A DNA stretch of 64,000 bases from an uncultured Chloroflexia bacterium (GCA_963797095.1 CAWCNY010000004.1:512001-576000), one strand, 5' to 3'; positions 20,682 through 34,617 are shown, numbered from the stretch's first letter. Numbers and translations: made by a program. The notes: generated by a model not told the origin, from the sequence alone.

Positions 20682-20758
20682 TGGTCGGGGTGAGAGGATT
20701 TGAACCTCTGACTTCATCGTCCCGAACGATGCGCGCTGCCGGGCTGCGCTACACCCCG
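20682..20758 (-). tRNA. tRNA-Pro(CGG)
   Basis: CGGGGTG acceptor stem, anticodon arm CATCG-TTCGGGA-CGATG, GGTTCAAATCC, encoded CCA; 77 nt. Confidence 0.96.
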
Positions 20759-20773
20759 AGGATATGTTCCATC

Positions 20774-20803
20774 ATTATACCAGACCCCGCTCATGCCTGT
20801 CAA
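20774..20803 (-). promoter_or_regulatory. Consensus sigma70 promoter of tRNA-Pro
   Basis: TTGACA (20803-20798), 18-bp spacer ending TGG, TATAAT (20779-20774). Confidence 0.85.
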
Positions 20804-20817
20804 AAACTGTACCGAAG

Positions 20818-22484
20818 GTATGCGGTCAGACTTGAGGTGGAGCAATTTCCACTGTATTCTATGAAGTATGAACCTGGAAGAAGAACTAGCCCATCTGCGG
20901 GCAGAGAATGCACAACTCAAAGAGCAATTGCGCCTTGCTCTGGAGCGCATCGCCGAGTTGGAAGCCAGGTTGGAGCAGATGCAGACACAGCTAGCCTCTG
21001 GCTCTGGCTCGCCAGGTGCCCCATCATTCGTCAAGCCCTCCACTCCCAAGAAGAACAACACCCCAAAGCCTCCCAGACGCCCCAGAGCTAAAGAGCACAA
21101 TGGTGCCCGCCGCCGTGAACAATCGCCCACCTCAACAATTGAGCACCACCTGCAGCAGTGTCCCGATTGTGGCTACACCCTTCGTCAGCACCAACTCGCC
21201 TCCAGACGCCAGGTGATAGAACTCCCTCCACCCCCTCCTGTGCAAGTCACTGAGCACCAGCTATTCAAGGGGTGGTGTGCTCGTTGTGGGAGGTGGCACT
21301 ACCCCACTGTCGACCTTACAGGTCAGGTGATTGGGCAAGGCAGAATGGGGGTGCGTATCGCCTCCCTCATAGCTCATCTGCGCACATCGTTGAGGATGCC
21401 CCTCCTCCTCATAAAAGAGTACCTGTACACCATACACAAGTTGACCATCTCTTCGGGTGAGGTTGTGGAGTTGTTGCATCGAATGGTGCAAGCCGAACCT
21501 CTGAAGGAGGCTGCTGCCTCCATAAAGAAGAGGGTTCGAAGGAGCCATAGCCATGTGGTACATGGTGACGAAACCACCTGGCGAGAAGGGGGACAAAACG
21601 GCTATATCTGGGGCTTCTTCACGCCCGATGGAGAGCGATTGTACGAGTACGACCAGAGCCGAGGGGGAGCGGTAGCCAAACGAATAATGGGGTCTAACTT
21701 TGGGGAAAAGGGTCAAGTAATGTCGAGTGACTTCTACGGTGGCTACAACGACTTCCCAGGAGAGCACCAGCGGTGCTGGGCACATCTGCTCCGTGATTTG
21801 CATAAGCTGAAAGAGGAGCACCCCATCAACCCCATCAACCCTACCAACCCTACCAACCCTACCAACCCTACCAACCCCACTAACCCCACTAACGAGGAAG
21901 TGCATGAATGGGCCAGGGGAGTGCGAGCACTGTACGATGATGCCCATAAGCTGTTGGAAGAACACGAACTTGGCCCTCCCACTGCAGACGAAGCCACAAA
22001 AGAGCCACACAAGTGGGAGCAGCGTGTAAGAGAGTACCGGCGGTTGGTGGAAGGGGTTGCCAAGCTAGGTGCGCAGTATGCCGATGCCAAGGAGTTCGGG
22101 CCACAGGGCGGGGGCAAACAAGGGCCACAGGGCGGGGGCGGGGGCGGGGGCGGGGGCGGGGGCGGGGGCAAGAACGGTAACGGCCCCCAAAGAGCAAGCA
22201 CCCATGCCACACCTTGTGCAAGAGACTGCTGCGCCACCAGGAGGAGTTATTCCAGTTCGTGATAGTGCCCACCTTATCCTCTGACAACAACCTGGCGGAA
22301 CGGTCAATCCGTCCTGTGGTGGTGATGCGCAAGGTATCAGGTGGTAGTCAATCGCCCAAGGGATCAGCCACCCGGATGACGTTGGCTACCCTGTTCGGCA
22401 CCTGGCGAGCTAAGGGTCTCAACCCCTTTGACCAGTGCTTGGCCCTCCTCTCCCAGCCCTCCCACCCTTAATCTGAGAGCTTAC
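20818..22484 (+). mobile_element. IS66-family element, single-ORF (ISBst12-like), copy 1, 1667 bp
   Basis: Imperfect IRs GTATGCGGTCAGACTTGAGG / GTAAGCTCTCAGATTAAGGG; flanks TACCGAAG and AATGCAAT; near-identical inverted copy at 31475-33169. Confidence 0.92.
20868..22471 (+). CDS. IS66 transposase split by a -1 frame change near 22181-22199
   Basis: Coiled coil, CPDC...CARC Zn finger, HGDET, SSDFY, QRCWAHLLR; the -1 frame carries DNNLAERSIRP. Confidence 0.85.
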
Positions 22485-22603
22485 AATGCAATCTCGAAGG
22501 AACGGCAAGTGGGTCTGGGAAGTTGATGCCGTGGCTCATAGTCTCAGACATTTCGAGGATTGAACACTTATCAGTCGCCTTCATTTTAGGGTAGAATATC
22601 GCT

Positions 22604-23740
22604 ATGGCTAACGCAACACCCGATGAGGGTGGATCTATTGGGCGGGAAATTAGACCTGCACGGGCTGCCCGATACCGTCCGCATGCCAGCGTTACAGTTA
22701 CCACCGAATCCCCTATTGGCGAGCATACTCGTCCTGAAGCGGCGACTGGCGCGACGCAGCTACTTTGGCTCTCAATCATCGCCGGTGTGGTGTTGTTCTT
22801 CACTATGCTTCTCGTCTTGCTGGGCGGACGTGCTAATGTTGGGGCCATTATAAGCACGCTAAGCGTTCGTTTTCTAAGCCTATTCATCGAGGCGGCTCCC
22901 TTCCTCCTTCTGGGCACCCTCCTCTCCGGCTTGATTGATGTCTTCGTGCGCCAGGAGCATATACTTCGCTTCGTGCCGCGTAATGCCTTCCTGGGTGTGC
23001 TCACAGGTACTTTCGCGGGCTTCGTCTTCCCGGTGTGTGAATGTGGGGTCGTACCAGTTGTACGCCAGCTATACGTCAAGCGCCTGCCTTTACCTGTGGG
23101 CATTTCATTCCTTCTGGCTGCCCCCGTCATGAATCCAATCGTGTTATTCAGCACCTGGACTGCGTTCGGTTGGGGGCCAATACTGATCGGTAGGTATGTC
23201 ATTTCTGCCATTGTTGTAATCGCAATCGGCCTCTTTTTCGCGCTAGGCAAGAACAAGATCGAGTTGGCGCCTGCCGTGCTGGCTTCTTCCGCTCAACCGG
23301 CCACACCGGCACTTGATATGCCGATAGGAACTAAGCTCAGGCAAGCCCTTACGGTGGCGGGTGATGAGTTCTTCGATATGGGCCGGTACCTGGTAGTGGG
23401 TGCGCTCCTCGCTTCTGCGATGCAAACTCTTGTGTCTCAAGATGTGATATTGTCCCTGGGGCAAGGCCCGATTGCATCTGTGCTCATTATGCAGGTGCTG
23501 GCCTTTGTGCTGAGCGTTTGCTCAACTGTCGATGCCTTCCTCGCGTTGGCCTTCACGGGCGCTTTCACTGCCGGTTCGCTCCTGGCGTTCCTGACCTTCG
23601 GGCCTATGGTAGACATCAAGAGCACTATCATGTTCATGGGCGTCTTCAAGAGGCGTACGGTAGGCTTACTGGTCGTTTTACCTTTCCTCCTGACTTTTGT
23701 CATATCGGTCCTGCTCAATCTGATCGGATGGACTCCTTGA
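22604..23740 (+). CDS. DUF318/YcgR-like permease
   Basis: EAAPFLL, FPVCECGVVP, LAAPVMNP, VCSTVDAF, GPMVDIK. Confidence 0.88.
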   Translation: MANATPDEGGSIGREIRPARAARYRPHASVTVTTESPIGEHTRPEAATGATQLLWLSIIAGVVLFFTMLLVLLGGRANVGAIISTLSVRFLSLFIEAAPFLLLGTLLSGLIDVFVRQEHILRFVPRNAFLGVLTGTFAGFVFPVCECGVVPVVRQLYVKRLPLPVGISFLLAAPVMNPIVLFSTWTAFGWGPILIGRYVISAIVVIAIGLFFALGKNKIELAPAVLASSAQPATPALDMPIGTKLRQALTVAGDEFFDMGRYLVVGALLASAMQTLVSQDVILSLGQGPIASVLIMQVLAFVLSVCSTVDAFLALAFTGAFTAGSLLAFLTFGPMVDIKSTIMFMGVFKRRTVGLLVVLPFLLTFVISVLLNLIGWTP

Positions 23741-24606
23741 TGAACGTGGAGCAACAGATTACAATTCAATCGTTGCGCTCTGATAAGCGAGATGTACAGA
23801 ACCGGGTAATCGCCAAAATAGCGGTCCTGCTTGGACTTGGGATTTACTTCGCTTACAATCTGACCAGCGGCAACATCAAAAACTATGTCAATCCGCAATG
23901 GGCCTGGTTATCGGGTATGGCCTCCGTACTATGCCTACTGCTCGGCCTTGTGAGTCTTTACTCTTATCTACGGGAGCGACCGCAGACTATTCATTCTGAT
24001 GCACCGCTTCACGACCATCCGCATTCCCATGACCATAGCGAAGACTCGGCACATGGGCACAAGGGCCATAGCCATTCGGCGGTAAGTTGGCCCATGTTAT
24101 CTGTCCTGGCGATTCCTCTAGTGCTGGGACTTGGCGTGCCGTCGCAACCCCTTGGCGCATCTGCCCTGGAGAACAGCACAGGCACATCGAAGTCTATGAT
24201 CGAGCGGGCAGGCCCGGCTGAGGGTAATGACACCGCAAGGTGGAACATCTGGGACTGGCAGCGTACTTATTATGCGAATGTCCACCCCGATAACTGGTTC
24301 GACGGCCAAGGGGGCAACTTCTCAGGCTTTATCTTCCACCCAGGTGGCCTGGGACCTGACCAGTTTGTGCTGGCTCGATATGTTATGCGCCACTGCGCCG
24401 CCGACGCCTTTGGGGTTGGCATGCTTGTGAATTGGCCCGGTGGGGGCAGCTTGCCTGAAGACACATGGGTGGATATTAGCGGCACTATGGCGGTAGAGCC
24501 GTTCCAGGGGGAGGATACTCTCCTGGTAAATGCTGCTTCTCTCACCAACCTTAAATCCCCCGACAACCCGTATATCTATCCATCGTTCTATGTCGTATCG
24601 AAATAG
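23740..24606 (+). CDS. TIGR03943/YcgQ-like partner protein with His-rich loop; probable metal transport pair
   Basis: YVNP, His-rich HDHPHSHDH...HGHKGHSH, CAADA, PDNPY; overlaps the permease stop. Confidence 0.82.
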   Translation: MNVEQQITIQSLRSDKRDVQNRVIAKIAVLLGLGIYFAYNLTSGNIKNYVNPQWAWLSGMASVLCLLLGLVSLYSYLRERPQTIHSDAPLHDHPHSHDHSEDSAHGHKGHSHSAVSWPMLSVLAIPLVLGLGVPSQPLGASALENSTGTSKSMIERAGPAEGNDTARWNIWDWQRTYYANVHPDNWFDGQGGNFSGFIFHPGGLGPDQFVLARYVMRHCAADAFGVGMLVNWPGGGSLPEDTWVDISGTMAVEPFQGEDTLLVNAASLTNLKSPDNPYIYPSFYVVSK

Positions 24607-24636
24607 CAGAAATCTTTGAAAGCAGAGGATCACCAG

Positions 24637-25998
24637 ATGACGTCAACCGACAACATACAAGAAACGCAAAAAGCAGGCACTTCCGAATTCAATGGGCACG
24701 AGCCGAACTTTGAGCGCCATACCTTACCCAACGGCCTATCTGTGCTTACCAAAGAGGTCCACTCGGCCCCGGTGATCTCTTTTTGGGTCTGGTACCGGGT
24801 GGGGGCACGCAACGAGCATGCAGGGATCACAGGTATCTCTCACTGGGTAGAGCACATGATGTTCAAGGGCACGAGCACGTTTGGCAAAGGCCAGATCATG
24901 CAGATGGTTGCCGAGAATGGGGGCACACTCAACGCCTTCACTTCGGACGATTGGACAACCTACTTCGAGACACTCCCCTCAGATCGCCTCGACCTTGCCC
25001 TCCAGATCGAGGCCGACCGGATGGTCAACTCACTGATCGACCCGGATGAGGTTGCCTCCGAGCGCACAGTCATCATCTCGGAGCGCGAAGGCTCAGAGAA
25101 CGAGCCTGACCGCCTTCTTGATGAAGAGGTGTCGTCGGCGGCGTTCAAAGTACATGCATACGGCACTGCCGTCATCGGCTGGAAATGCGATCTTCGCACT
25201 ATGACCCGCGACGACCTCTATAACCACTACAAGACTTACTATGCTCCCAACAATGCGACCATAGTAGTTGTAGGCGATTTCGACACGGAAGAACTGCTCA
25301 AGAAGATACATACACTGTTCGGCTCATACCCTGAAAGCAGTTCGATACCGGAGGTGCGCTCTATAGAGCCCGAACAGATAGGTGAGCGTCGAGTGCGCGT
25401 GGAGCACCCAGGCACGACAGCTCAGATCGAGGTTGTATACCATACTCCTTCCGCCGCCAGCCCCGATATATATCCCCTTATGGTGGCGGATGCCCTTCTT
25501 TCCGGGGCCAAGCCGCTTGGAATGGGTGGTGGGGGCGGCAGATCGGCTCGTCTCTATAAGGCAATGGTGACCACCGAGATCGCGGCCAGTGCGGGCTCAT
25601 ATTTCTCGCTCCATAAGGACCCACATCTCTTTACCCTGGGCGCGACCGCCAAGGCAGGCGATGGGCACATGGAAAGCCTGCAAAACATGGAAGCCGCTCT
25701 TTTTGAGGAGATACAGAAGCTACAGGAAGATGAAATCCCCCAGGAGGAACTGGACAAAGCAGTGAGGCAATCTCGCGCTCAGTTCATCTATTCAGGCGAT
25801 AGCATGACCAACCAGGCTTATATGCTTGGCTACCTCGAAAGTGTCTACAGTGCGAACCTGTACGACGAAGCCCTTGAAAAGCTGGCGGCGGTGACCCCTG
25901 AGGACGTTCGACGCGTTGCTCGCACTTACCTTACCGAGCACAATCGTACGGTGGGATGGTTCATTCCAACTGAAGAAGGGTCTACAGATCACGTGTAA
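24637..25998 (+). CDS. M16 zinc peptidase, catalytic subunit
   Basis: HWVEHMMFKG (HxxEH), NAFTS. Confidence 0.93.
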   Translation: MTSTDNIQETQKAGTSEFNGHEPNFERHTLPNGLSVLTKEVHSAPVISFWVWYRVGARNEHAGITGISHWVEHMMFKGTSTFGKGQIMQMVAENGGTLNAFTSDDWTTYFETLPSDRLDLALQIEADRMVNSLIDPDEVASERTVIISEREGSENEPDRLLDEEVSSAAFKVHAYGTAVIGWKCDLRTMTRDDLYNHYKTYYAPNNATIVVVGDFDTEELLKKIHTLFGSYPESSSIPEVRSIEPEQIGERRVRVEHPGTTAQIEVVYHTPSAASPDIYPLMVADALLSGAKPLGMGGGGGRSARLYKAMVTTEIAASAGSYFSLHKDPHLFTLGATAKAGDGHMESLQNMEAALFEEIQKLQEDEIPQEELDKAVRQSRAQFIYSGDSMTNQAYMLGYLESVYSANLYDEALEKLAAVTPEDVRRVARTYLTEHNRTVGWFIPTEEGSTDHV

Positions 25999-26047
25999 TG
26001 CGAAAGCGCCTGATGACAATTATGACTTACTTTCTAAAGGAACAACA

Positions 26048-27340
26048 ATGCCGACAGTAGCCAACCGGGCACTTAGCCCCGAAACAATCACACGCCACAT
26101 CATGCCAAACGGTATGACGGTGCTTGTCTACCCCAACCCCACTATCCCCGCCCTCGTATCTCGTGTGTCGATCAGAGGGGGTGCTATGTATGACCCTTCG
26201 GATAAGGCGGGCCTTGCCTCGTTTGCGACAAGAGCTATGCGCCGGGGCACAGAGCGTTATACTTTTGAGCAACTGAACGAGGAGACCGAAGGCAGAGGCG
26301 CATCGGTGGGAGTTGACGCGGGTAAGGCTCTTATGGAGGCGGGGGGCAGGGCGCTCAAGGAAGACACCCGCTTTCTGCTCGATACGATAGCCGAAGTCCT
26401 GTTGAGGCCCGCCTTCCCGGCGGGCGAGATCGATAAGATGCGCAAGCAGATACGTACCGGCCTTGCAGAGTTGGAGATGGATACAGGCTCAGTCGGGGAG
26501 CGAGCCTTTCGTGAGACGCTTTACCCAGAGGGCCACCCCTACCACAACAGAACAGCGGGTTTCCTCGAAACCCTCGACAATATCGGGCGCGACGACATGA
26601 TCGCATTCTATAAGAGGTATATGCGCCCTGACCGTGCTATCCTGGTATCGGTTGGGGATGTGGGCCCCGATGAGATCGTGGCGCTGGCTGATGAGCTTTT
26701 CGGCGGCTGGCGGGCCGAGGGAGATGAGCTTGAGCCTTATGCCGTTCCCGATGCCCCGATGCCCAGTGGCGCGACTACAGTATTCCGACCTGTGCCAGGT
26801 AAGACGCAAAACGACCTGGTGCTAGGGTTCCCTGGTCTGCGCAGGCGCGACCCTGATTATTATGCATTCGATTTGATGAACCTGCTGCTGGGCCGGATCG
26901 GCCTCATGGGGAGGCTCGGTAAGAACGTTCGTGATGAGCAAGGGCTAGCCTACTATGCAGGTTCGTCATTTGAGGCAGGTTTGGGAGCGGGGCCCTGGGC
27001 TGTGCGAGCAGGAGTGAACCCATCCAATGTGCTCCAAGCTATTGGGAGTATCCGCCACGAAATCGAGAGGATCAGGACCGAGTTGATCCCCGATGAAGAA
27101 CTGGAAGGCGGCAAGCGTTATATGACCGGAGTGCTGCCGCTGCGCCTGGAAACAAGCGATGGGTTGGCCCGAACGATCCTGGAGATGGAGTTGTTCGACC
27201 TGGGTTTCGATTACATCAGCAATTATCCAGGGATTATCAATGCGCTAACTCCTGAGTATGTTAACGAAGTGGCGAAGATGCACCTGTCGTCGGAGAATTA
27301 CGTGGTGGCGGTGGCCGGCCCTTCTGTGGAAAGGCTATAG
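26048..27340 (+). CDS. M16 peptidase, non-catalytic partner
   Basis: No HxxEH; has VRDEQGLAY; AAAGGA RBS. Confidence 0.88.
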   Translation: MPTVANRALSPETITRHIMPNGMTVLVYPNPTIPALVSRVSIRGGAMYDPSDKAGLASFATRAMRRGTERYTFEQLNEETEGRGASVGVDAGKALMEAGGRALKEDTRFLLDTIAEVLLRPAFPAGEIDKMRKQIRTGLAELEMDTGSVGERAFRETLYPEGHPYHNRTAGFLETLDNIGRDDMIAFYKRYMRPDRAILVSVGDVGPDEIVALADELFGGWRAEGDELEPYAVPDAPMPSGATTVFRPVPGKTQNDLVLGFPGLRRRDPDYYAFDLMNLLLGRIGLMGRLGKNVRDEQGLAYYAGSSFEAGLGAGPWAVRAGVNPSNVLQAIGSIRHEIERIRTELIPDEELEGGKRYMTGVLPLRLETSDGLARTILEMELFDLGFDYISNYPGIINALTPEYVNEVAKMHLSSENYVVAVAGPSVERL

Positions 27341-27341
27341 G

Positions 27342-30326
27342 CTACCACCCGCCGCTGGACGAGCCGCCGCCTCCCCAGCTTCCACCGGAAGAGTGCCCCC
27401 CTCCGAAACCGCCGGAGGAGGAACCTCCATGCCCAAATCCCCCGCTGGACGAGCCGCCGCCTCCCCAGCTTGAACCGCCGCCACTACTGCCGCCACCGCC
27501 ACCTCCCCAACTCCAGCCGCCACCGCCCCTGTGGTGACCACCTCCGCCGCCTCCCCAACCCCAGCCGATGAATCCGCCCCCACCGTAGTCGCGCCGCCTC
27601 CGTTCTTCTTCCTCGGCTTCTTGTTCGGTTTTGTACTGGACTACATCGCCATGCGCTTCCTGGTTTGCTTGCTGGGCGAGCGACTGGGCGTTGCGCGCGG
27701 CATCCATAATGCTGTGTATTTCATCAACGCCGGCTCCGTCTCTCCACTGAGGTAATGCATCCTGGGCCTGTCTTAGCAACTCTTTGGCGCGATGGCTTAC
27801 TTCTGAGCCATGCATGTTCATGTAGAAGTTGGCCTGCTCGATAGCCTGGGATGCTTCGTGGAGGGTGGCGTACGCTTGACTGCGGAGGTTCTCCATCGCT
27901 TGAAACTGCTGTTGCGCTGCGCCGTACACTTTGTCCGCTTCGGCCTGGGCTGTGCCAAGCTGTGTTGCAAGCTGGTTCAGAGCCTGCGCGAGCGCCAAAT
28001 CCTCCAGTCCGGAGCTTCCAATCTGCTGTATATTCGCCTGGATCTGTTCGAGATTTGCCTGGGTCGCTTGCAGGTCGCGGAAGAGGGCAGGGTCGAGGTC
28101 GGTGCGATGCACAGTTGCGAAGTTGGCTGCGCGGCTGAGGGCTGCTATGGCCTGCTGGCCAGTGGTGTTTACCTTCAGCCTGAACGCCTGCATGGCCTCT
28201 TCCTGGCTTCGGGCGTCGGCGAGTGCCTTGTCGGCAGTATCGTTGGCTGACCGGGCCTGGCGCACAACTGCAATCCAATCGGGTTTATCTTTTGCTGATT
28301 CGGCCTTCGCTTCGGATAGGAGACTCGCTGCTTCCTTGAGCATGTCTGATGGCCTGGGTGTGATGTCCTTGTCGTACTGTGCGACGAAGGTCTGACCCGC
28401 TTCGATATCATGTTGAGCGGTATCTATCTCGGTGCTCGCGGTGCGCTTGCTCTCCTCGATGTTCTTCAGCCGCTCCAGGATGGCTGTGACCAGGTCTCTC
28501 GCTTTTTTGATAAAGCTATCGGCCTGCGCCGCCAGATCAGCAGCCTTTTCGAAGTCCTGCTCCCCACCGGGTGTGAGGGCATTGAGATCCGAAGCCTGCT
28601 GCCACAATTCCTGAGCACTATTGGCGGCTTTCTGAGCTTCGGTGCCGTTGCCTTTTATGTCCACCCAGGAACTTTCGGCGTATTCGTCCACTTGGTCGAA
28701 TGCTTGCGCGCCTTGCCGGATGTAGTCTTTGAGTTCTTCGCCGGCCTTCTGGAGCGCAGACAGAGCCTGCTCATTGGACTTGTGAAGGGCAACCAGCGCA
28801 TCGACTGTAGAGCGCGCCTTACCGAGACCTTCGTCAGTGCTCTTCATGATGTTGTCGAACACAGCCGAGTCGCCGCTTTCCTCCAACCCTTTCGCGGCGC
28901 GCGCTAGAAGGCTTAGCAGGCTGGCTGAGTGGTCGCCTGAGCGCGCGAGCTTATAGCCGTTTTTGCGATACTCTGCTACGGCGCTTCGGAAGCCTGCTAA
29001 TGCGTTATAGGAAGTAGCGATGTGCTGGATAGAGGCAGAAATCCGGTCAGATAACTCGTGGGCTGAGGTGGCCGCGTCATAGGCGGCCAGTGGATGTGCA
29101 GGCCTGGCTGCAAGCGCTTGCAGGGCCTGAGAGATGAGCGCGGAGATACGTGCAGTCGCTTTGTTGGGGTCGGGTTTGTAGAGGTCTGGGGCCGCCGCAG
29201 CTAACCGTTCCAGGCTATTGGTCACTGCGGCCAGGGCTTTTTTTGCTTCTTCGACCTCCCCCGGAGCAGTAGCGACCTGGTTTTCGACCTGTCTGCTCCG
29301 TTCGGCGATTTCCTTGAGGAAAGTTGCTGCCGCGTTGATTTCGGTTTGTACTGATTGATATTGTGCGATGCCTGCCGTCAACTCTTCTTCGGTTGTGTAC
29401 TTCGCTTCGTTGGCCGCGTTGTAGTTCGCCAACGCGGCTGACACCCGGTCGTACATAGCATGATAGCTTGCCTGTAGCTTTGCCAGTTCGTCGGGGCGCT
29501 CGTTACCGAGGGCGAGGGCCAGGAAGCGGTATTGTAGCTGCTCGTTGGGGTCGGCGGGGAAGTCGAGGTCGGTGATCATGTCGGCGGCGACATTGCGTGC
29601 CTGGAGAAGTTGGTCCTGCAAGGTGCGCTTGCGAGCCGCAGCCTCTTGCGCTCGCCGCCATGCCCTCCATATGATTGGCCCCAGCACAGCAATCAGGCCA
29701 AGCACGATAATGATACCTAAGGCCCATAGAAGCGCCATGCCTAACCCGCTTGTGTCGATGTTGGTGATTACCGACGGCTGAGGTGTGGCCGTGGGCGCCG
29801 GTGTGGGCGGGTTCCTGAAGAGGTCTATTTTTGTGGCGGCGGTTGTAAAGGTATCTACGAATGCGCCGGTGTAGTCGCCAGCCGCAAGTTTGGGCTGCAT
29901 ATTGCCGGTGCGCAGAGAGGTGCCCAAGCCTTGCCCGTCAGGAGGGTCGGCCATGATCGAGTTCAGATCGTCGCCCCAGAGGACCGTGATTTGCCTGGGG
30001 CTGAGCGTGACTACTATGGCTAACAGGTCCGGGTCTACGGTCTGGTCGGAAACATTAGCGAGGCCGTAATTCTCAGCGACTTTACGAGCAAAGAGGTCGC
30101 TATCGTCGCCCGTGCGGGTTTGTAAGAGGGCGGCGAGTGGCTTGATCCCCAGGTACTTTAGCAAATCTGCGGCATTATTGATGGTGCTTACGTTGAGGTT
30201 GCCGGTGAGGTCGGCAACCACACCCACAAGCGGAGGAAAGGTCTGTGCGTAGGCGGCAGACCCCATCGCGAGAAGGTATGCGCCCACGATCAAGAGGGCA
30301 AGAAACAGCCTGAGTCTTCTTAGCAT
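27342..30326 (-). CDS. TPM-domain-like membrane protein with long helical region and Gly-rich tail
   Basis: Signal peptide, TPM-like ectodomain (PKLAAGDYTGAF), one TM, Ala/Gln-rich helices, GGGGSSSGGW end. Confidence 0.75.
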   Translation of the reverse strand: MLRRLRLFLALLIVGAYLLAMGSAAYAQTFPPLVGVVADLTGNLNVSTINNAADLLKYLGIKPLAALLQTRTGDDSDLFARKVAENYGLANVSDQTVDPDLLAIVVTLSPRQITVLWGDDLNSIMADPPDGQGLGTSLRTGNMQPKLAAGDYTGAFVDTFTTAATKIDLFRNPPTPAPTATPQPSVITNIDTSGLGMALLWALGIIIVLGLIAVLGPIIWRAWRRAQEAAARKRTLQDQLLQARNVAADMITDLDFPADPNEQLQYRFLALALGNERPDELAKLQASYHAMYDRVSAALANYNAANEAKYTTEEELTAGIAQYQSVQTEINAAATFLKEIAERSRQVENQVATAPGEVEEAKKALAAVTNSLERLAAAAPDLYKPDPNKATARISALISQALQALAARPAHPLAAYDAATSAHELSDRISASIQHIATSYNALAGFRSAVAEYRKNGYKLARSGDHSASLLSLLARAAKGLEESGDSAVFDNIMKSTDEGLGKARSTVDALVALHKSNEQALSALQKAGEELKDYIRQGAQAFDQVDEYAESSWVDIKGNGTEAQKAANSAQELWQQASDLNALTPGGEQDFEKAADLAAQADSFIKKARDLVTAILERLKNIEESKRTASTEIDTAQHDIEAGQTFVAQYDKDITPRPSDMLKEAASLLSEAKAESAKDKPDWIAVVRQARSANDTADKALADARSQEEAMQAFRLKVNTTGQQAIAALSRAANFATVHRTDLDPALFRDLQATQANLEQIQANIQQIGSSGLEDLALAQALNQLATQLGTAQAEADKVYGAAQQQFQAMENLRSQAYATLHEASQAIEQANFYMNMHGSEVSHRAKELLRQAQDALPQWRDGAGVDEIHSIMDAARNAQSLAQQANQEAHGDVVQYKTEQEAEEEERRRRDYGGGGFIGWGWGGGGGGHHRGGGGWSWGGGGGGSSGGGSSWGGGGSSSGGFGHGGSSSGGFGGGHSSGGSWGGGGSSSGGW

Positions 30327-30357
30327 TAGTTGGTGACCTGGATAGCTTGTTGGGTTG

Positions 30358-30942
30358 CTAGCTCCGGGCGTTAGGGCGCGGGCCCATACCCTGGCTGCCC
30401 TGAGTTGTGATAGTTCCAAGTGCGCGGGTGCGGCGCTGCAACTGCTCGTTCGCCTTTTGGAAGTACGCATCGAGCAGTAGGCGTGCATCACGCAGCCGAT
30501 CGAGGGCATCACTATATGCCTGGGAAACCGTATCGAGGATCAGCCCCTCAAGCATGCCCGCGACCTGGGAATTGTTCCTGAATGGGAGCGTGGCATCGTT
30601 GATTTGTGGGTTCTGGGGAGTGCCCAGGCTTACCAGAGTATCAACAGCGAGATCCTCGGAACTTTTCTGGAGTGCGTTGGCAACTACCATAACACTGTTG
30701 CGGGCGTTAACGATATCAACTCCCGTAGCGCCCACACCAAACAGCAATTGAGAATGGTATGCAAGCCTCTGGGCAAGCACATCAGCTTGCTCTGTGATGA
30801 TGCGTGCTATATCCCCGGGAAGATCGAACGGCTGTTGGGGTTGGCCGTCTGCCGATGGGGCCGGTGCCTGGGGTTGTGCTGTATCTGGGGGAGCCTGATT
30901 GGTAGGTCTATCAGGCGAATTCGGCGTGGTACCTGTGGTCAT
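30358..30942 (-). CDS. Hypothetical protein, 194 aa
   Basis: GGAGGAAAGGA upstream of ATG; co-oriented with the TPM gene. Confidence 0.65.
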   Translation of the reverse strand: MTTGTTPNSPDRPTNQAPPDTAQPQAPAPSADGQPQQPFDLPGDIARIITEQADVLAQRLAYHSQLLFGVGATGVDIVNARNSVMVVANALQKSSEDLAVDTLVSLGTPQNPQINDATLPFRNNSQVAGMLEGLILDTVSQAYSDALDRLRDARLLLDAYFQKANEQLQRRTRALGTITTQGSQGMGPRPNARS

Positions 30943-31269
30943 TCCTTTCCTCCCGCTGTTTTATCCCCTTGTTTGTACTACAATCCGTGCGCGAATGCAA
31001 CAGCGGTGCTCTCCTTCCATTCCGTCTGTTATTGTGGAAAACTGCCGATGTTCGACATTGACGGCAAGTATGGGCAGAAGTATACTGAATTCACTTCAGA
31101 AGTGCTGAGCTTCAGGAGTAACAGAGGCCCGGATGATCCGTCAGGACTGTCTGGGTTTTCTGTTTAAGATGTTCTTTTGTCCACGGCCCGTAGTGTATTG
31201 TGATGTGGCGGCGTGGACTCGCCCTCATATACTAAGTGACGTTTGTGGGACAAAACGGGACAGGTTTTG

Positions 31270-31451
31270 GGTTCTTCGTCACTTTTGGTGAAGCATGCCT
31301 AACAACGTGGATCTATTGCTGGTGAGCGCCGATATACTGTCGAATCCGCGTGCCTCTGCGTCACCATGCCGGTTGTAGCATGCCCTGAAGGCTCTTGGGC
31401 CACCGCTTTGAGCGATTTGCTTCCCTGGTTCACCAAAAGTGACGAAGAGCC
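31270..31451. mobile_element. ISL3-type MITE, 182 bp
   Basis: 23-bp IR GGYTCTTCGTCACTTTTGGTGAA; 8-bp direct repeat AGGTTTTG at 31262-31269 and 31452-31459; no transposase. Confidence 0.82.
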
Positions 31452-31474
31452 AGGTTTTGGGGTGTACTTCGGTA

Positions 31475-33169
31475 GTAAGCTCTCAGATTAAGGGTGGGAG
31501 GGCTGGGAGAGGAGGGCCAAGCACTGGTCAAAGGGGTTGAGACCCTTAGCTCGCCAGGTGCCGAACAGGGTAGCCAACGTCATCCGGGTGGCTGATCCCT
31601 TGGGCGATTGACTACCACCTGATACCTTGCGCATCACCACCACAGGACGGATTGACCGTTCCGCCAGGTTGTTGTCAGAGGATAAGGTGGGCACTATCAC
31701 GAACTGGAATAACTCCTCCTGGTGGCGCAGCAGTCTCTTGCACAAGGTGTGGCATGGGTGCCTGCTCTTTGGGGGCCGTTACCGTTCTTGCCCCCGCCCC
31801 CGCCCCCGCCCCCGCCCCTGCCCCCGCCCTGTGGCCCTTGTTTGCCCCCGCCCTGTGGCCCGAACTCCTTGGCATCGGCATACTGCGCACCTAGCTTGGC
31901 AACCCCTTCCACCAACCGCCGGTACTCTCTTACACGCTGCTCCCACTTGTGTGGCTCTTTTGTGGCTTCGTCTGCAGTGGGAGGGCCAAGTTCGTGTTCT
32001 TCCAACAGCTTATGGGCATCATCGTACAGTGCTCGCACTCCCCTGGCCCATTCATGCACTTCCTCGTTAGTGGGGTTAGTGGGGTTGGTAGGGTTGGTAG
32101 GGTTGGTAGGGTTGGTAGGGTTGGTAGGGTTGGTAGGGTTGGTAGGGTTGATGGGGTTGATGGGGTGCTCCTCTTTCAGCTTATGCAAATCACGGAGCAG
32201 ATGTGCCCAGCACCGCTGGTGCTCTCCTGGGAAGTCGTTGTAGCCACCGTAGAAGTCACTCGACATTACTTGACCCTTTTCCCCAAAGTTAGACCCCATT
32301 ATTCGTTTGGCTACCGCTCCCCCTCGGCTCTGGTCGTACTCGTACAATCGCTCTCCATCGGGCGTGAAGAAGCCCCAGATATAGCCGTTTTGTCCCCCTT
32401 CTCGCCAGGTGGTTTCGTCACCATGTACCACATGGCTATGGCTCCTTCGAACCCTCTTCTTTATGGAGGCAGCAGCCTCCTTCAGAGGTTCGGCTTGCAC
32501 CATTCGATGCAACAACTCCACAACCTCACCCGAAGAGATGGTCAACTTGTGTATGGTGTACAGGTACTCTTTTATGAGGAGGAGGGGGCATCCTCAACGA
32601 TGTGCGCAGATGAGCTATGAGGGAGGCGATACGCACCCCCATTCTGCCTTGCCCAATCACCTGACCTGTAAGGTCGACAGTGGGGTAGTGCCACCTCCCA
32701 CAACGAGCACACCACCCCTTGAATAGCTGGTGCTCGGTGACTTGCACAGGAGGGGGTGGAGGGAGTTCTATCACCTGGCGTCTGGAGGCGAGTTGGTGCT
32801 GACGAAGGGTGTAGCCACAATCGGGACACTGCTGCAGGTGGTGCTCAATTGTTGAGGTGGGCGATTGTTCACGGCGGCGGGCACCATTGTGCTCTTTAGC
32901 TCTGGGGCGTCTGGGAGGCTTTGGGGTGTTGTTCTTCTTGGGAGTGGAGGGCTTGACGAATGATGGGGCACCTGGCGAGCCAGAGCCAGAGGCTAGCTGT
33001 GTCTGCATCTGCTCCAACCTGGCTTCCAACTCGGCGATGCGCTCCAGAGCAAGGCGCAATTGCTCTTTGAGTTGTGCATTCTCTGCCCGCAGATGGGCTA
33101 GTTCTTCTTCCAGGTTCATACTTCATAGAATACAGTGGAAATTGCTCCACCTCAAGTCTGACCGCATAC
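31475..33169 (-). mobile_element. IS66-family element copy 2, 1695 bp
   Basis: Same IRs; differs from copy 1 by three extra 9-bp repeats, one extra C near 32585 and a few substitutions. Confidence 0.92.
31488..33119 (-). pseudogene. IS66 transposase, two frame breaks
   Basis: ORF pieces 32526-33119, 31697-32545 and 31488-31745. Confidence 0.85.
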
Positions 33170-33174
33170 CTTGC

Positions 33175-34477
33175 TAGGGCTGTGTCAAGAAAGGTGAAAG
33201 TGTGAATCCATCGAGTAGAATCACTCCAAGCTCTGGAACAGCGAAGGAGGACCGCCTCAATGGATTCACATCAGTATACCAGCTTGCTGGAGGCATTAGC
33301 GCACGTACCTGACCCACGCAAGGCGAAAGGTAAGGAGCACGAGTGGAGGGTAGTGATGGCTGTGTTATGTGCAGCAGTGGCTGGTGGACAGCGCAGCGTG
33401 AGGGGAATTGCTCAATGGGCAAAAGAACATGAAGCCGAACTTATTCACCATCTGCAACCAACCAGGCAGCATCTACCAAGCGCAGCCACTCTCTACCGAG
33501 TAATGCGTAGCGTTGACGTAGCAAGCGTGGAAAACCATCTTGCTCACTTTTCATATTCGCAGGAGTGTGCCCGTGATAAGCACAATGCTCAAGATAATCG
33601 AAGAAGGCGGCAGCAACTCGTGGAAGGCGGCAGCAACTCGTGGGGCAATCGGTAGATGGTAAGGAATTACGCGGGGCACGAGCACATGGTCGCCCAATCT
33701 GCCTGGTGAGCCTGGTACGACACGGCACAGGTCGCGTGCTGGCGCAGCGAGCGGTAGAGCAAAAGAGCAATGAAATCAAGGCTGTGCCCTACCTGCTCCA
33801 AGGGCAAGACCTCCGAGGCACAGTCACTACGATGGATGCTCTGCTCACTCAACGAGCTATTGCCCAGCAGATAGTGAGTGGAGGGGGGCATTACTTGATG
33901 GTGGTCAAGGCCAATCAAGGGGAGTTATATCTGGCTACCGAAGAATTGTTTGCTTGCCCACCCTGGCTGGCACACGAGAAGGCAGCCAACTATCGAAGCT
34001 ACACCAAAGTGGAGAAGGGACATGGGCGACTAGAGAAGCGCACGTTGGAAAGCAGCCCGGCAATGCGAGAGTATATGCAGGAGTATCTGCATTGGCCAGC
34101 TGGGGCGCAGGTGATGAGGCGCACCTGTCAGAGAGTGACCCTTTCGAGCGGGGAGATCAGTGAGGAGGTCAAGTATGGGGTCACGAGCTTGAGGTGGGAA
34201 GAGGCTGATGTCGCCGAGTTGGAAAGGCTGTGGAGAGGACATTGGACCATCGAGAATCGGGTACACCATGTGCGTGATGTCACGATGGGCGAGGACCAAA
34301 ATCAGATGAGGGTGGGCAATGCTCCCCAGGTGCTGGCGGCGCTGCGCAATGCTATCCTTAACCTGGTACGTTCCAAAGGCTGGACTAACATCGCCGATGG
34401 CCTACGTCATTATGGAGCCTTCGTGCATCGTGCCCTAGCCCTCGTTACCTCCCTTAATCTTCCTTGACACAGCCCTA
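33175..34477 (+). mobile_element. ISAs1-family element, 1303 bp
   Basis: IRs TAGGGCTGTGTCAAG; 10-bp TSD CATACCTTGC / CATACATTGC (one mismatch). Confidence 0.92.
33260..34467 (+). pseudogene. ISAs1 transposase frameshifted by a 20-bp tandem duplication
   Basis: VPDPR, DGKELRG, KSNEI, TMDAL, GHGRLEKR, RGHWTIENRVHHVRDV; GAAGGCGGCAGCAACTCGTG x2 at 33603-33642. Confidence 0.88.
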
Positions 34478-34496
34478 CATACATTGCATTCCAAAA

Positions 34497-34525
34497 TTGA
34501 CACCCGCACACAGGATTGGTATAAT
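34497..34525 (+). promoter_or_regulatory. Consensus sigma70 promoter of tRNA-Gln
   Basis: TTGACA, 17-bp spacer ending TGG, TATAAT. Confidence 0.9.
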
Positions 34526-34543: not shown

Positions 34544-34617
34544 TGGGGCGTCGTCTAACGGTAGGACAGCTGACTCTGGATCAGTAAGTTGAGGTTCGAA
34601 TCCTTGCGCCCCAGCCA
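34544..34617 (+). tRNA. tRNA-Gln(CTG)
   Basis: TGGGGCG acceptor stem, anticodon arm GCTGA-CTCTGGA-TCAGT, GGTTCGAATCC, encoded CCA; 74 nt. Confidence 0.96.

Follow-up and report, generated by a model that had tools for sequence, protein, structure and literature searches.

Why should two near-identical insertion sequences, placed in inverted orientation to each other, both end exactly the same number of base pairs upstream of a tRNA promoter? This question is raised by a 64-kb stretch of DNA from an uncultured soil Chloroflexia bacterium (hereinafter the window; coordinates refer to it unless a contig is named), equal to G000:C4:512001-576000 of its own 6.0-Mb genome, G000. The initial annotation of the window had noticed that two insertion sequence (IS) elements of the IS66 family lie 14 bp from the -35 hexamers of a tRNA-Pro and a tRNA-Gln promoter and had suggested that promoters guide their transposition. 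In following this up across G000, its sister genomes and metagenomes, we found that the two copies belong to a distinct clade of IS66 elements, which almost certainly inserts in a targeted manner as such. The best overall explanation at hand, which we consider probable, is that this clade is directed to promoters with RNA polymerase doing the positioning.

At the first of the two sites, the tRNA-Pro (CGG) gene detected by ARAGORN (20682-20758, minus strand) lies behind a promoter on the same strand (20774-20803) that matches the consensus at 12 of 12 positions, with TTGACA at 20803-20798, an 18-nt spacer, a TATAAT ending at 20774 and a TG before this -10 hexamer. A 6-bp spacer (20804-20809) separates the -35 from the 8-bp target-site duplication TACCGAAG (20810-20817, plus strand), and copy 1, a 1667-bp element of what we call sub-family A (20818-22484, plus strand), follows directly, its left inverted repeat starting at 20818 and its right end falling at 22484. 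At the second site, the tRNA-Gln (CTG) gene, likewise from ARAGORN (34544-34617, plus strand), has a promoter with the same 12 of 12 matches (34497-34525, plus strand), comprising TTGACA at 34497-34502, a 17-nt spacer and a TATAAT ending at 34525. Here again 6 bp (34491-34496) lead from the -35 to an 8-bp target-site duplication, ATTGCATT (34483-34490, plus strand), which belongs to copy 2, a sub-family A element of 1695 bp (31475-33169, minus strand). The order at both copies is thus left end, 8-bp target duplication, 6 bp and a perfect TTGACA-N17/18-TATAAT tRNA promoter, and the transposase gene (starting at 20868 in copy 1) reads away from the promoter in both. The initial annotation had placed the copy 1 duplication 6 bp from the tRNA-Pro TTGACA, and every one of its coordinates is correct; its description of a left end 14 bp from the -35, an outward-pointing transposase and an intact promoter applies to both copies.

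For copy 2 this geometry emerges once a later insertion is discounted. An ISAs1-family element of 1303 bp (33175-34477, plus strand) cuts the copy 5 bp from its left end and splits those 5 bases off (34478-34482, where the last 5 bases of copy 2 are repeated). Its 10-bp duplication (33165-33174 and 34478-34487, with 9 of 10 bases matching) straddles the left end of copy 2, taking in 5 bp of the IS end and 5 bp of the flank. Given this flanking duplication, and the perfect 10-bp duplication around the sole other ISAs1 copy in the genome, discounting the element from copy 2 is justified; the earlier claim that the copy 2 duplication (34483-34490) then stands 6 bp from the tRNA-Gln TTGACA agrees with these 10-bp duplications. 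The 8-bp duplications themselves are crossed, in that the partner of each is found, as its reverse complement, beside the right end of the other copy: AATGCAAT, the reverse complement of the copy 2 duplication, adjoins the right end of copy 1 (22485-22492, plus strand), and CTTCGGTA, that of the copy 1 duplication, adjoins the right end of copy 2 (31467-31474, plus strand). This crossing implies that both are true target duplications and that the segment between the copies (22485-31474, ~9 kb) was inverted later, by recombination between the inverted IS copies, which put each partner in its present place.

Is the arrangement peculiar to these two sites? A BLAST search of the 6.0-Mb genome with copy 1 uncovered three sub-families: A, with five copies including the two of the window (A1 and A2); B, at ~72-76% DNA identity, with four complete copies of 1467 bp; and C, with four copies of ~1480 bp. 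We scored each end by adding its TTGACA matches at a chosen offset to those of the best-fitting TATAAT at a spacer of 16-18 (maximum 12), and took 200,000 random positions of G000 as the background. The 13 left ends score 12, 12, 9, 12, 10, 10, 8, 5, 3, 11, 9, 11 and 10 at offset 14, so that 11 of 13 reach at least 8, as against 0.339% of random positions (0.044% of which reach at least 9). One further copy, B5, has a score of 10, but at offset 15. None of eight right ends reaches 8 at offset 14, their scores being 1-5. Duplications of 8 bp are present at A1 and A2 (crossed), A3, A4, A5, B3-B6 and C1-C4, and the genes downstream of the targeted promoters include, besides the two tRNAs, rplJ, ftsH, aconitase and an S-layer-homology protein. 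Perfect TTGACA-N17/18-TATAAT sites number 56 in G000 against ~0.4 expected from the hexamer frequencies, which indicates that this Chloroflexia genome widely uses consensus promoters of the Escherichia coli type; three of the 56 are occupied by sub-family A copies. As a separate observation, copy A4 (G000:C5:161504-186900) is interrupted near IS position 1505 by a segment of ~23.6 kb that has inverted ends on either side, and its missing right end, with the matching 8-bp duplication, is found at about C5:186900.

Beyond G000, the related contigs bear titles of Chloroflexia metagenome-assembled genomes. A scan of genome contigs gave 53 loci, mostly of distant relatives, and a scan of metagenomes gave nine, just three of which are clade members with a usable left flank. 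In this first set there are seven further clade members whose left flank could be read (four in sister genomes, three on metagenome contigs). Of the seven, five score at least 8 at offset 14, while another, L036, scores 6 there (with a good -10 and a weak -35) and 8 at offset 15. For a second set, whose ends were collected blind, 26 genomes of the genus were searched with the 120-nt left end of sub-family B. Of the 85 places found outside G000, we dropped one in a genome flagged as unpublished and four already counted; 79 of the 80 fetched, coming from eight sister genomes, had enough flank. At offset 14, 42 of these 79 score at least 8, 36 at least 9 and 23 at least 10. The scan across offsets peaks sharply: 13 ends reach 8 at offset 13, 42 at 14, 16 at 15 and 10 at 16, and each remaining offset between 6 and 25 has zero to two. 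The fit also follows the length of the match, with 16 of 18 fitting where at least 33 nt matched and 26 of 61 where the match was to the 23-43-nt inverted repeat alone. Hence, the enrichment of a -35 at 14 bp from the left end, which had been proposed as the check to make in this genome and its relatives, is strongly positive (11/13, 5/7 and 42/79).

Two further features of the second set deserve mention in their own right. Some of the short matches come from miniature, non-autonomous derivatives of the clade, which have left-end-like inverted repeats at both ends, 147-208 bp apart; these are L211/L212 (G013:C169:16772-16979, the 208-bp pair) and L233/L246 (G013:C142:560-706). No promoter match adjoins either pair. 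Also, L191 (at the end of G004:C48) and L192 (at the start of G004:C6) share the first 20 bases of their flanks, -35 included, and then diverge, so that the shared part may represent an assembly variant or a duplicated promoter.

The behavior does not extend to the wider family. More distant single open reading frame (single-ORF) relatives within IS66, at 25-53% protein identity, supply 24 ends, none of which scores at least 8 at offset 14, although several of these ends were placed with just 16 of 24 repeat matches; one, L040, has a score of 10 at offset 20. Leaving out L018, the one control row taken from a genome flagged as unpublished, alters nothing. When the left end of a non-targeting relative served as the query, four ends came back, three of them known already. 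In a maximum-likelihood tree of 41 transposases, from which six rows were omitted (four duplicates and two long distant ones), all promoter-adjacent elements fall in one clade with 100/100 support, together with the exception L087 and three elements whose flanks were not assessable; the sister clade in this tree has no promoter-adjacent member. Thus, the fixed offset, the fixed orientation and the restriction to one clade are all observed. Further, empty sites are found in relatives: the rplJ promoter is uninterrupted in G017 where G000 has element C3; the tRNA-Pro promoter is present without an IS in G015, G014 and G041; and consensus-type tRNA-Gln promoters are free of an IS in G017, G015, G041 and G014. 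These comparisons show that the targeted promoters existed before the insertions.

What kind of transposase is responsible? The elements are 1.47-1.75 kb long (1467-1748 bp) and consist almost entirely of a single frame; the accessory genes tnpA and tnpB were not found in them, the transposase gene standing alone; they are therefore of the single-ORF form rather than the canonical three-gene IS66. The sub-family A frame matches the Pfam family PF03050 (DDE_Tnp_IS66) with an E-value of 1.2e-22 at profile positions 2-169 of 284, a partial coverage that arises because repeats and a frameshift split the gene. The B and C proteins match the NCBIfam equivalog NF033517 for IS66 with 271 and 263 bits respectively (cut-off 180) over positions 4-379 of 387, and a zf-IS66 domain (PF13005) is detected upstream of the catalytic domain with 31 bits (cut-off 27.3). 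The left ends begin with GTATG or GTAAG and the right ends with GTAAG, and the target duplications are of 8 bp; an 8-bp target duplication and inverted repeats starting with GTAA are the marks of IS66 in ISfinder. With DDE_Tnp_IS66, zf-IS66, 8-bp duplications, GTAA/GTAT ends and a lone transposase gene, the elements resemble the single-ORF, ISBst12-like members of IS66, a group whose label and single-ORF definition follow ISfinder usage; they differ from the relatives at no more than 53% identity, discussed above, in targeting promoters. NCBIfam, searched up to an E-value of 0.001, lists no family other than IS66 for B and C, with neither ISLre2 nor ISKra4 appearing, and a profile comparison with the genome's own ISKra4-family transposase gave a probability of 0.16% (E-value 0.37), with a faint resemblance confined to the zinc-finger region. 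These profile matches confirm the initial assignment to IS66: the transposase of the clade is a bona fide IS66 member, unrelated to the Mutator-like transposases of ISLre2 and ISKra4.

Several points weigh against the explanation given at the outset. The case for it is drawn entirely from where the elements lie today. Within G000, B6 has no promoter match at its left end, and its right end, read from the flank, lies a few bases upstream of the start of a lipoprotein-like gene. Among the seven further members, L087 belongs to the clade but lacks a promoter match. In the second set, 37 of the 79 ends score below 8; in most of these the match is short and confined to the inverted repeat. Such low-scoring ends may belong to miniature derivatives, may be far ends or may mark older sites that have decayed, and three abut the end of another IS. 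On the statistical side, the background rates for the other genomes were borrowed from G000, and ends from the same genome, having one host in common, do not sample the clade with full independence. Finally, comparison with the non-targeting relatives brought up no clade-specific targeting domain or insertion, but only 10 scattered clade-specific columns. Nevertheless, apart from B6, L087 and the 37 second-set ends, we did not see copies at random distances from promoters or inside genes, which the initial annotation had named as the pattern that would count against its proposal.

What does the clade recognize in a promoter? The initial annotation had allowed both for recruitment by RNA polymerase/sigma and for a transposase that reads TTGACA itself. 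Across 20 sites, flank positions 1-14 carry almost no information, whereas T prevails at positions 15 (18 of 20) and 16 (14 of 20) and G at position 17 (16 of 20), making the TTG of the -35 the strongest signal of the flank. Sites with a perfect TTGACA hold offset 14 with a spacer of 17 or 18, and hence the -35 rather than the -10 is the anchor. These facts would also follow if the transposase itself read promoter-like DNA, namely the TTG of the -35 and perhaps the -10, through its own DNA-binding domains and with no part for polymerase: the TTG stands out most, and the distance from the element to the -35 is fixed even though the spacer to the -10 is not. Moreover, the left end has a TTGAGG at the mirror position (IS bases 15-20), and a domain reading the inverted repeat could read the target too. 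We regard this explanation as unlikely, albeit deserving of serious weight, on account of the -10. Among ends with a perfect -35, 13 of 18 have a -10 matching at 5 or 6 of 6 positions, as against 9% of all 1967 TTGACA occurrences in the genome; with so many of these hexamers on offer, the occupied ones nearly always come with a good -10. Even among the 44 ends with a weak -35 (three matches or fewer), eight have a perfect TATAAT (background 0.034%) and 16 an in-register -10 of at least 5/6 (background 0.6%). A -10 in register despite a weak -35 favors recognition of a polymerase-bound promoter over the reading of TTGACA alone, and rigid reading poorly explains a -10 in register at spacers of 16, 17 and 18. 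It is also at odds with the first 14 target bases being unconserved, though the corresponding part of the inverted repeat is its best conserved one, and with the presence of the left-end TTGAGG in L009, a sister element that does not target promoters.

Three other accounts were weighed. Insertion might be guided by the physical condition of a promoter in use, for instance bent upstream DNA or the negative supercoiling that a transcribing polymerase leaves behind it, rather than by a protein contact or a sequence; the targets do include likely strong promoters (the tRNAs, rplJ and three of the 56 perfect consensus promoters), and unrelated IS families of the same genome also lie beside promoters. 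However, we consider this improbable, since single-base-pair precision (42 ends at offset 14 and zero to two at most others) and strict orientation are hard to obtain from a diffuse structural cue, and family-specific distances (14 for this clade and 16 for ISKra4) also speak against it. Alternatively, insertion might be random, with selection sparing the copies just upstream of promoters. Intergenic insertions are less harmful and some enrichment outside genes is expected for any IS, but selection cannot produce one exact offset and one orientation; the offset scan effectively refutes this account, and neither the right ends (0/8) nor the related IS66 elements in the same kinds of genomes (0/24) show the pattern, leaving it very improbable indeed. 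Least credible of all, to the point of being negligible, is that the promoter-like sequence belongs to the element as an outward promoter or that the junctions are assembly artefacts. Repeats do break assemblies, which is a general risk only; the motifs are found beyond the 8-bp duplications, where the flanks have nothing else in common from site to site, and the same promoters without an IS in relatives refute this account. As to artefacts, a contig from a public soil-metagenome run spans the tRNA-Pro promoter/IS junction of copy 1 (20736-20923) and another public-run contig contains the flank of copy A3; such contigs cover the window partly, the runs may be its source sample, and the uncovered parts are uninformative.

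We therefore return to positioning by polymerase and advance the following mechanism. The elements integrate in one orientation, with the transposase-start end 14 bp upstream of the -35 of sigma-A/sigma-70-type promoters, and leave the promoter and the gene behind it intact. A promoter occupied by the RNA polymerase holoenzyme would position the transposition complex; the contact would be made by sigma region 4, the alpha C-terminal domain or both, which sit immediately beside the cut sites. As a benefit, the element would gain a landing site that breaks no gene. Calculated from the offsets, the duplicated 8 bp correspond to about -43 to -50, and in the established architecture of promoters sigma region 4 and the alpha C-terminal domains sit beside this stretch. 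For the docking on polymerase taken by itself, our confidence inclines only slightly to the positive side.

G000 also offers a second family for comparison. An ISKra4-family element (269.6 bits in NCBIfam, cut-off 205) is present at G000:C6:789929-791440 and 13 other places (e.g., C6:892396), and for 10 of 13 of its ends a -35-like hexamer is found at a distance of 16 nt; two of the 10 have identical flanks. Each family thus holds its own distance to the -35, 14 for the IS66 clade and 16 for ISKra4. At the promoter of the S-layer-homology protein gene the two are stacked: the -35 is separated by 16 nt from an ISKra4-family end, and the IS66 element C4 occupies a place inside this interval, at 14 nt, flanked by an 8-bp duplication of its own. 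The position of C4 inside this stretch indicates that the IS66 element does not need native DNA beyond about -50. Taking these strands together, one may propose that promoter homing has independently re-arisen in IS66, that its transposase docks directly on promoter-bound RNA polymerase through sigma region 4 or the alpha C-terminal domain, and that promoters in this Chloroflexia genus are shared landing pads for unrelated IS families, the IS66 clade at 14 bp, ISKra4 at 16 bp and possibly ISAs1 at 19 bp. As a single package this is a tentative possibility, which we hold with some doubt.

How do these elements compare with known promoter-directed transposons? As described by Guerillot et al. 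(2014; PMC3942029, main text), TnGBS/ISLre2 (p-MULT 3) and part of the ISKra4 group (p-MULT 4) make oriented insertions 15-17 bp upstream of the -35; the transposases of TnGBS, ISLre2 and ISKra4 are all Mutator-like, and a signature motif between domains N1 and N2 of p-MULT 3/p-MULT 4 is linked there to promoter targeting (Fig. 8). The IS66 clade resembles TnGBS/ISLre2 in its oriented insertion at a fixed short distance upstream of a sigma-A -35 with the promoter left intact. It differs in having an IS66 rather than a Mutator-like transposase, a distance of 14 bp and an 8-bp duplication; further, the right inverted repeat faces the promoter in p-MULT 3, whereas the transposase-start end does so in the IS66 clade. 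With the ISKra4 group it shares both the behavior and the genome, down to one promoter where both are stacked, but the two have no detectable sequence relationship, and the same main text describes ISKra4-group insertions in both orientations, linked to near-perfect inverted repeats, while the IS66 clade inserts in one. Positioning of the transposition complex by polymerase has been proposed earlier for TnGBS/ISLre2/ISKra4. An analogy drawn in PMC3942029 is the Ty3 element of yeast, whose integrase is positioned by a bound initiation complex at RNA polymerase III start sites via TFIIIB/TFIIIC; as a eukaryotic retroelement with another enzyme and another polymerase, it is an analogy only.

The term IS66 is absent from the main text of PMC3942029, and a large survey (PMC9208149) that singles out ISLre2 and ISKra4 for their IS-to-gene distances leaves IS66 unmentioned in that connection. 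Full-text searches of the literature, together with passages of PMC8024623 and PMC4232325, turned up no account of an IS66 member that targets promoters; their scope did not extend to subscription journals, to ISfinder or to the supplementary material of PMC3942029. The behavior is known from TnGBS/ISLre2/ISKra4, and what is new is an unrelated transposase family and a different distance. Promoter-directed transposition was formerly seen in two related Mutator-like lineages, and the IS66 case makes it a recurrent evolutionary solution. The targeting clade and its non-targeting sister, with the same architecture and few differing positions, provide a natural contrast for finding the determinant, and the presence of ISKra4 at another offset in one host makes two mechanisms comparable in one cell. 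The element flanks mark sigma-A promoters in a poorly studied phylum and, if the proposed reading is true, could be read as a map of active promoters. Likewise, if it is true, the small intact B and C elements would be usable as promoter-seeking insertion tools, and an intact 1.47-kb element that seeks promoters while sparing them could become an instrument of gene delivery or promoter trapping.

The state of the genes themselves requires a correction to the initial annotation: the transposases of the window copies, of sub-family A, are frameshifted, and those of sub-families B and C are intact. In copy 1 the transposase frame runs over 20868-22262 (plus strand), with the C-terminal part in another frame at about 22181-22468. 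Sub-family A has an in-frame 9-bp repeat (encoding Pro-Thr-Asn units) whose number varies by copy, being higher in copy 2, and a GGGGGC repeat followed by a frameshift common to A1, A2, A3 and A5 (the complete copies translated, A4 being interrupted); copy 2 has one additional frameshift. The repeat regions lie at 21820-21893 and 22098-22169 in copy 1 and at 31790-31861 and 32057-32173 in copy 2, and neither repeat occurs in sub-families B and C. Between base 9 and at least base 35, sub-families A and B have the same left-end sequence, so the enzyme of B may be what moves sub-family A. The left end (20818-20870) also contains, at IS bases 15-43, a TTGAGG, a 17-nt spacer and a TATTCT, mirroring the geometry of the target promoters. 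The transposase start codon follows 7 nt after this TATTCT, which suggests a leaderless message. We considered this mirror promoter as the cause of targeting and rejected it: it matches at 8 of 12 positions only, is not called a promoter by the promoter scan and also occurs in a non-targeting sister element. A 7-bp hairpin overlaps it.

Other IS elements beside promoters in G000 may be noted in closing. The ISAs1 family has two copies only, too few to serve as an unrelated control, namely that of the window (33175-34477) and G000:C5:286884-288186, which are 100% identical, each with its 10-bp duplication, and searches of the sister genomes recovered no further copy in the genus. At both, a -35-like hexamer stands 19 nt from the left end and is followed, after another 17 nt, by a -10. 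On the left side of the window copy, this promoter-like sequence is the IS66 left-end motif, and the right end also lies 19 nt from the tRNA-Gln -35. With two copies, this placement at 19 nt may be chance. At G000:C2:297023, an element encoding a 474-amino-acid protein with weak, below-cut-off matches to the IS4 family ends 8-14 bp upstream of a perfect consensus promoter. The consensus promoter at C6:1025503 likewise has a truncated copy of that protein upstream, but there the neighboring repeat is apparently an ISKra4-family end.

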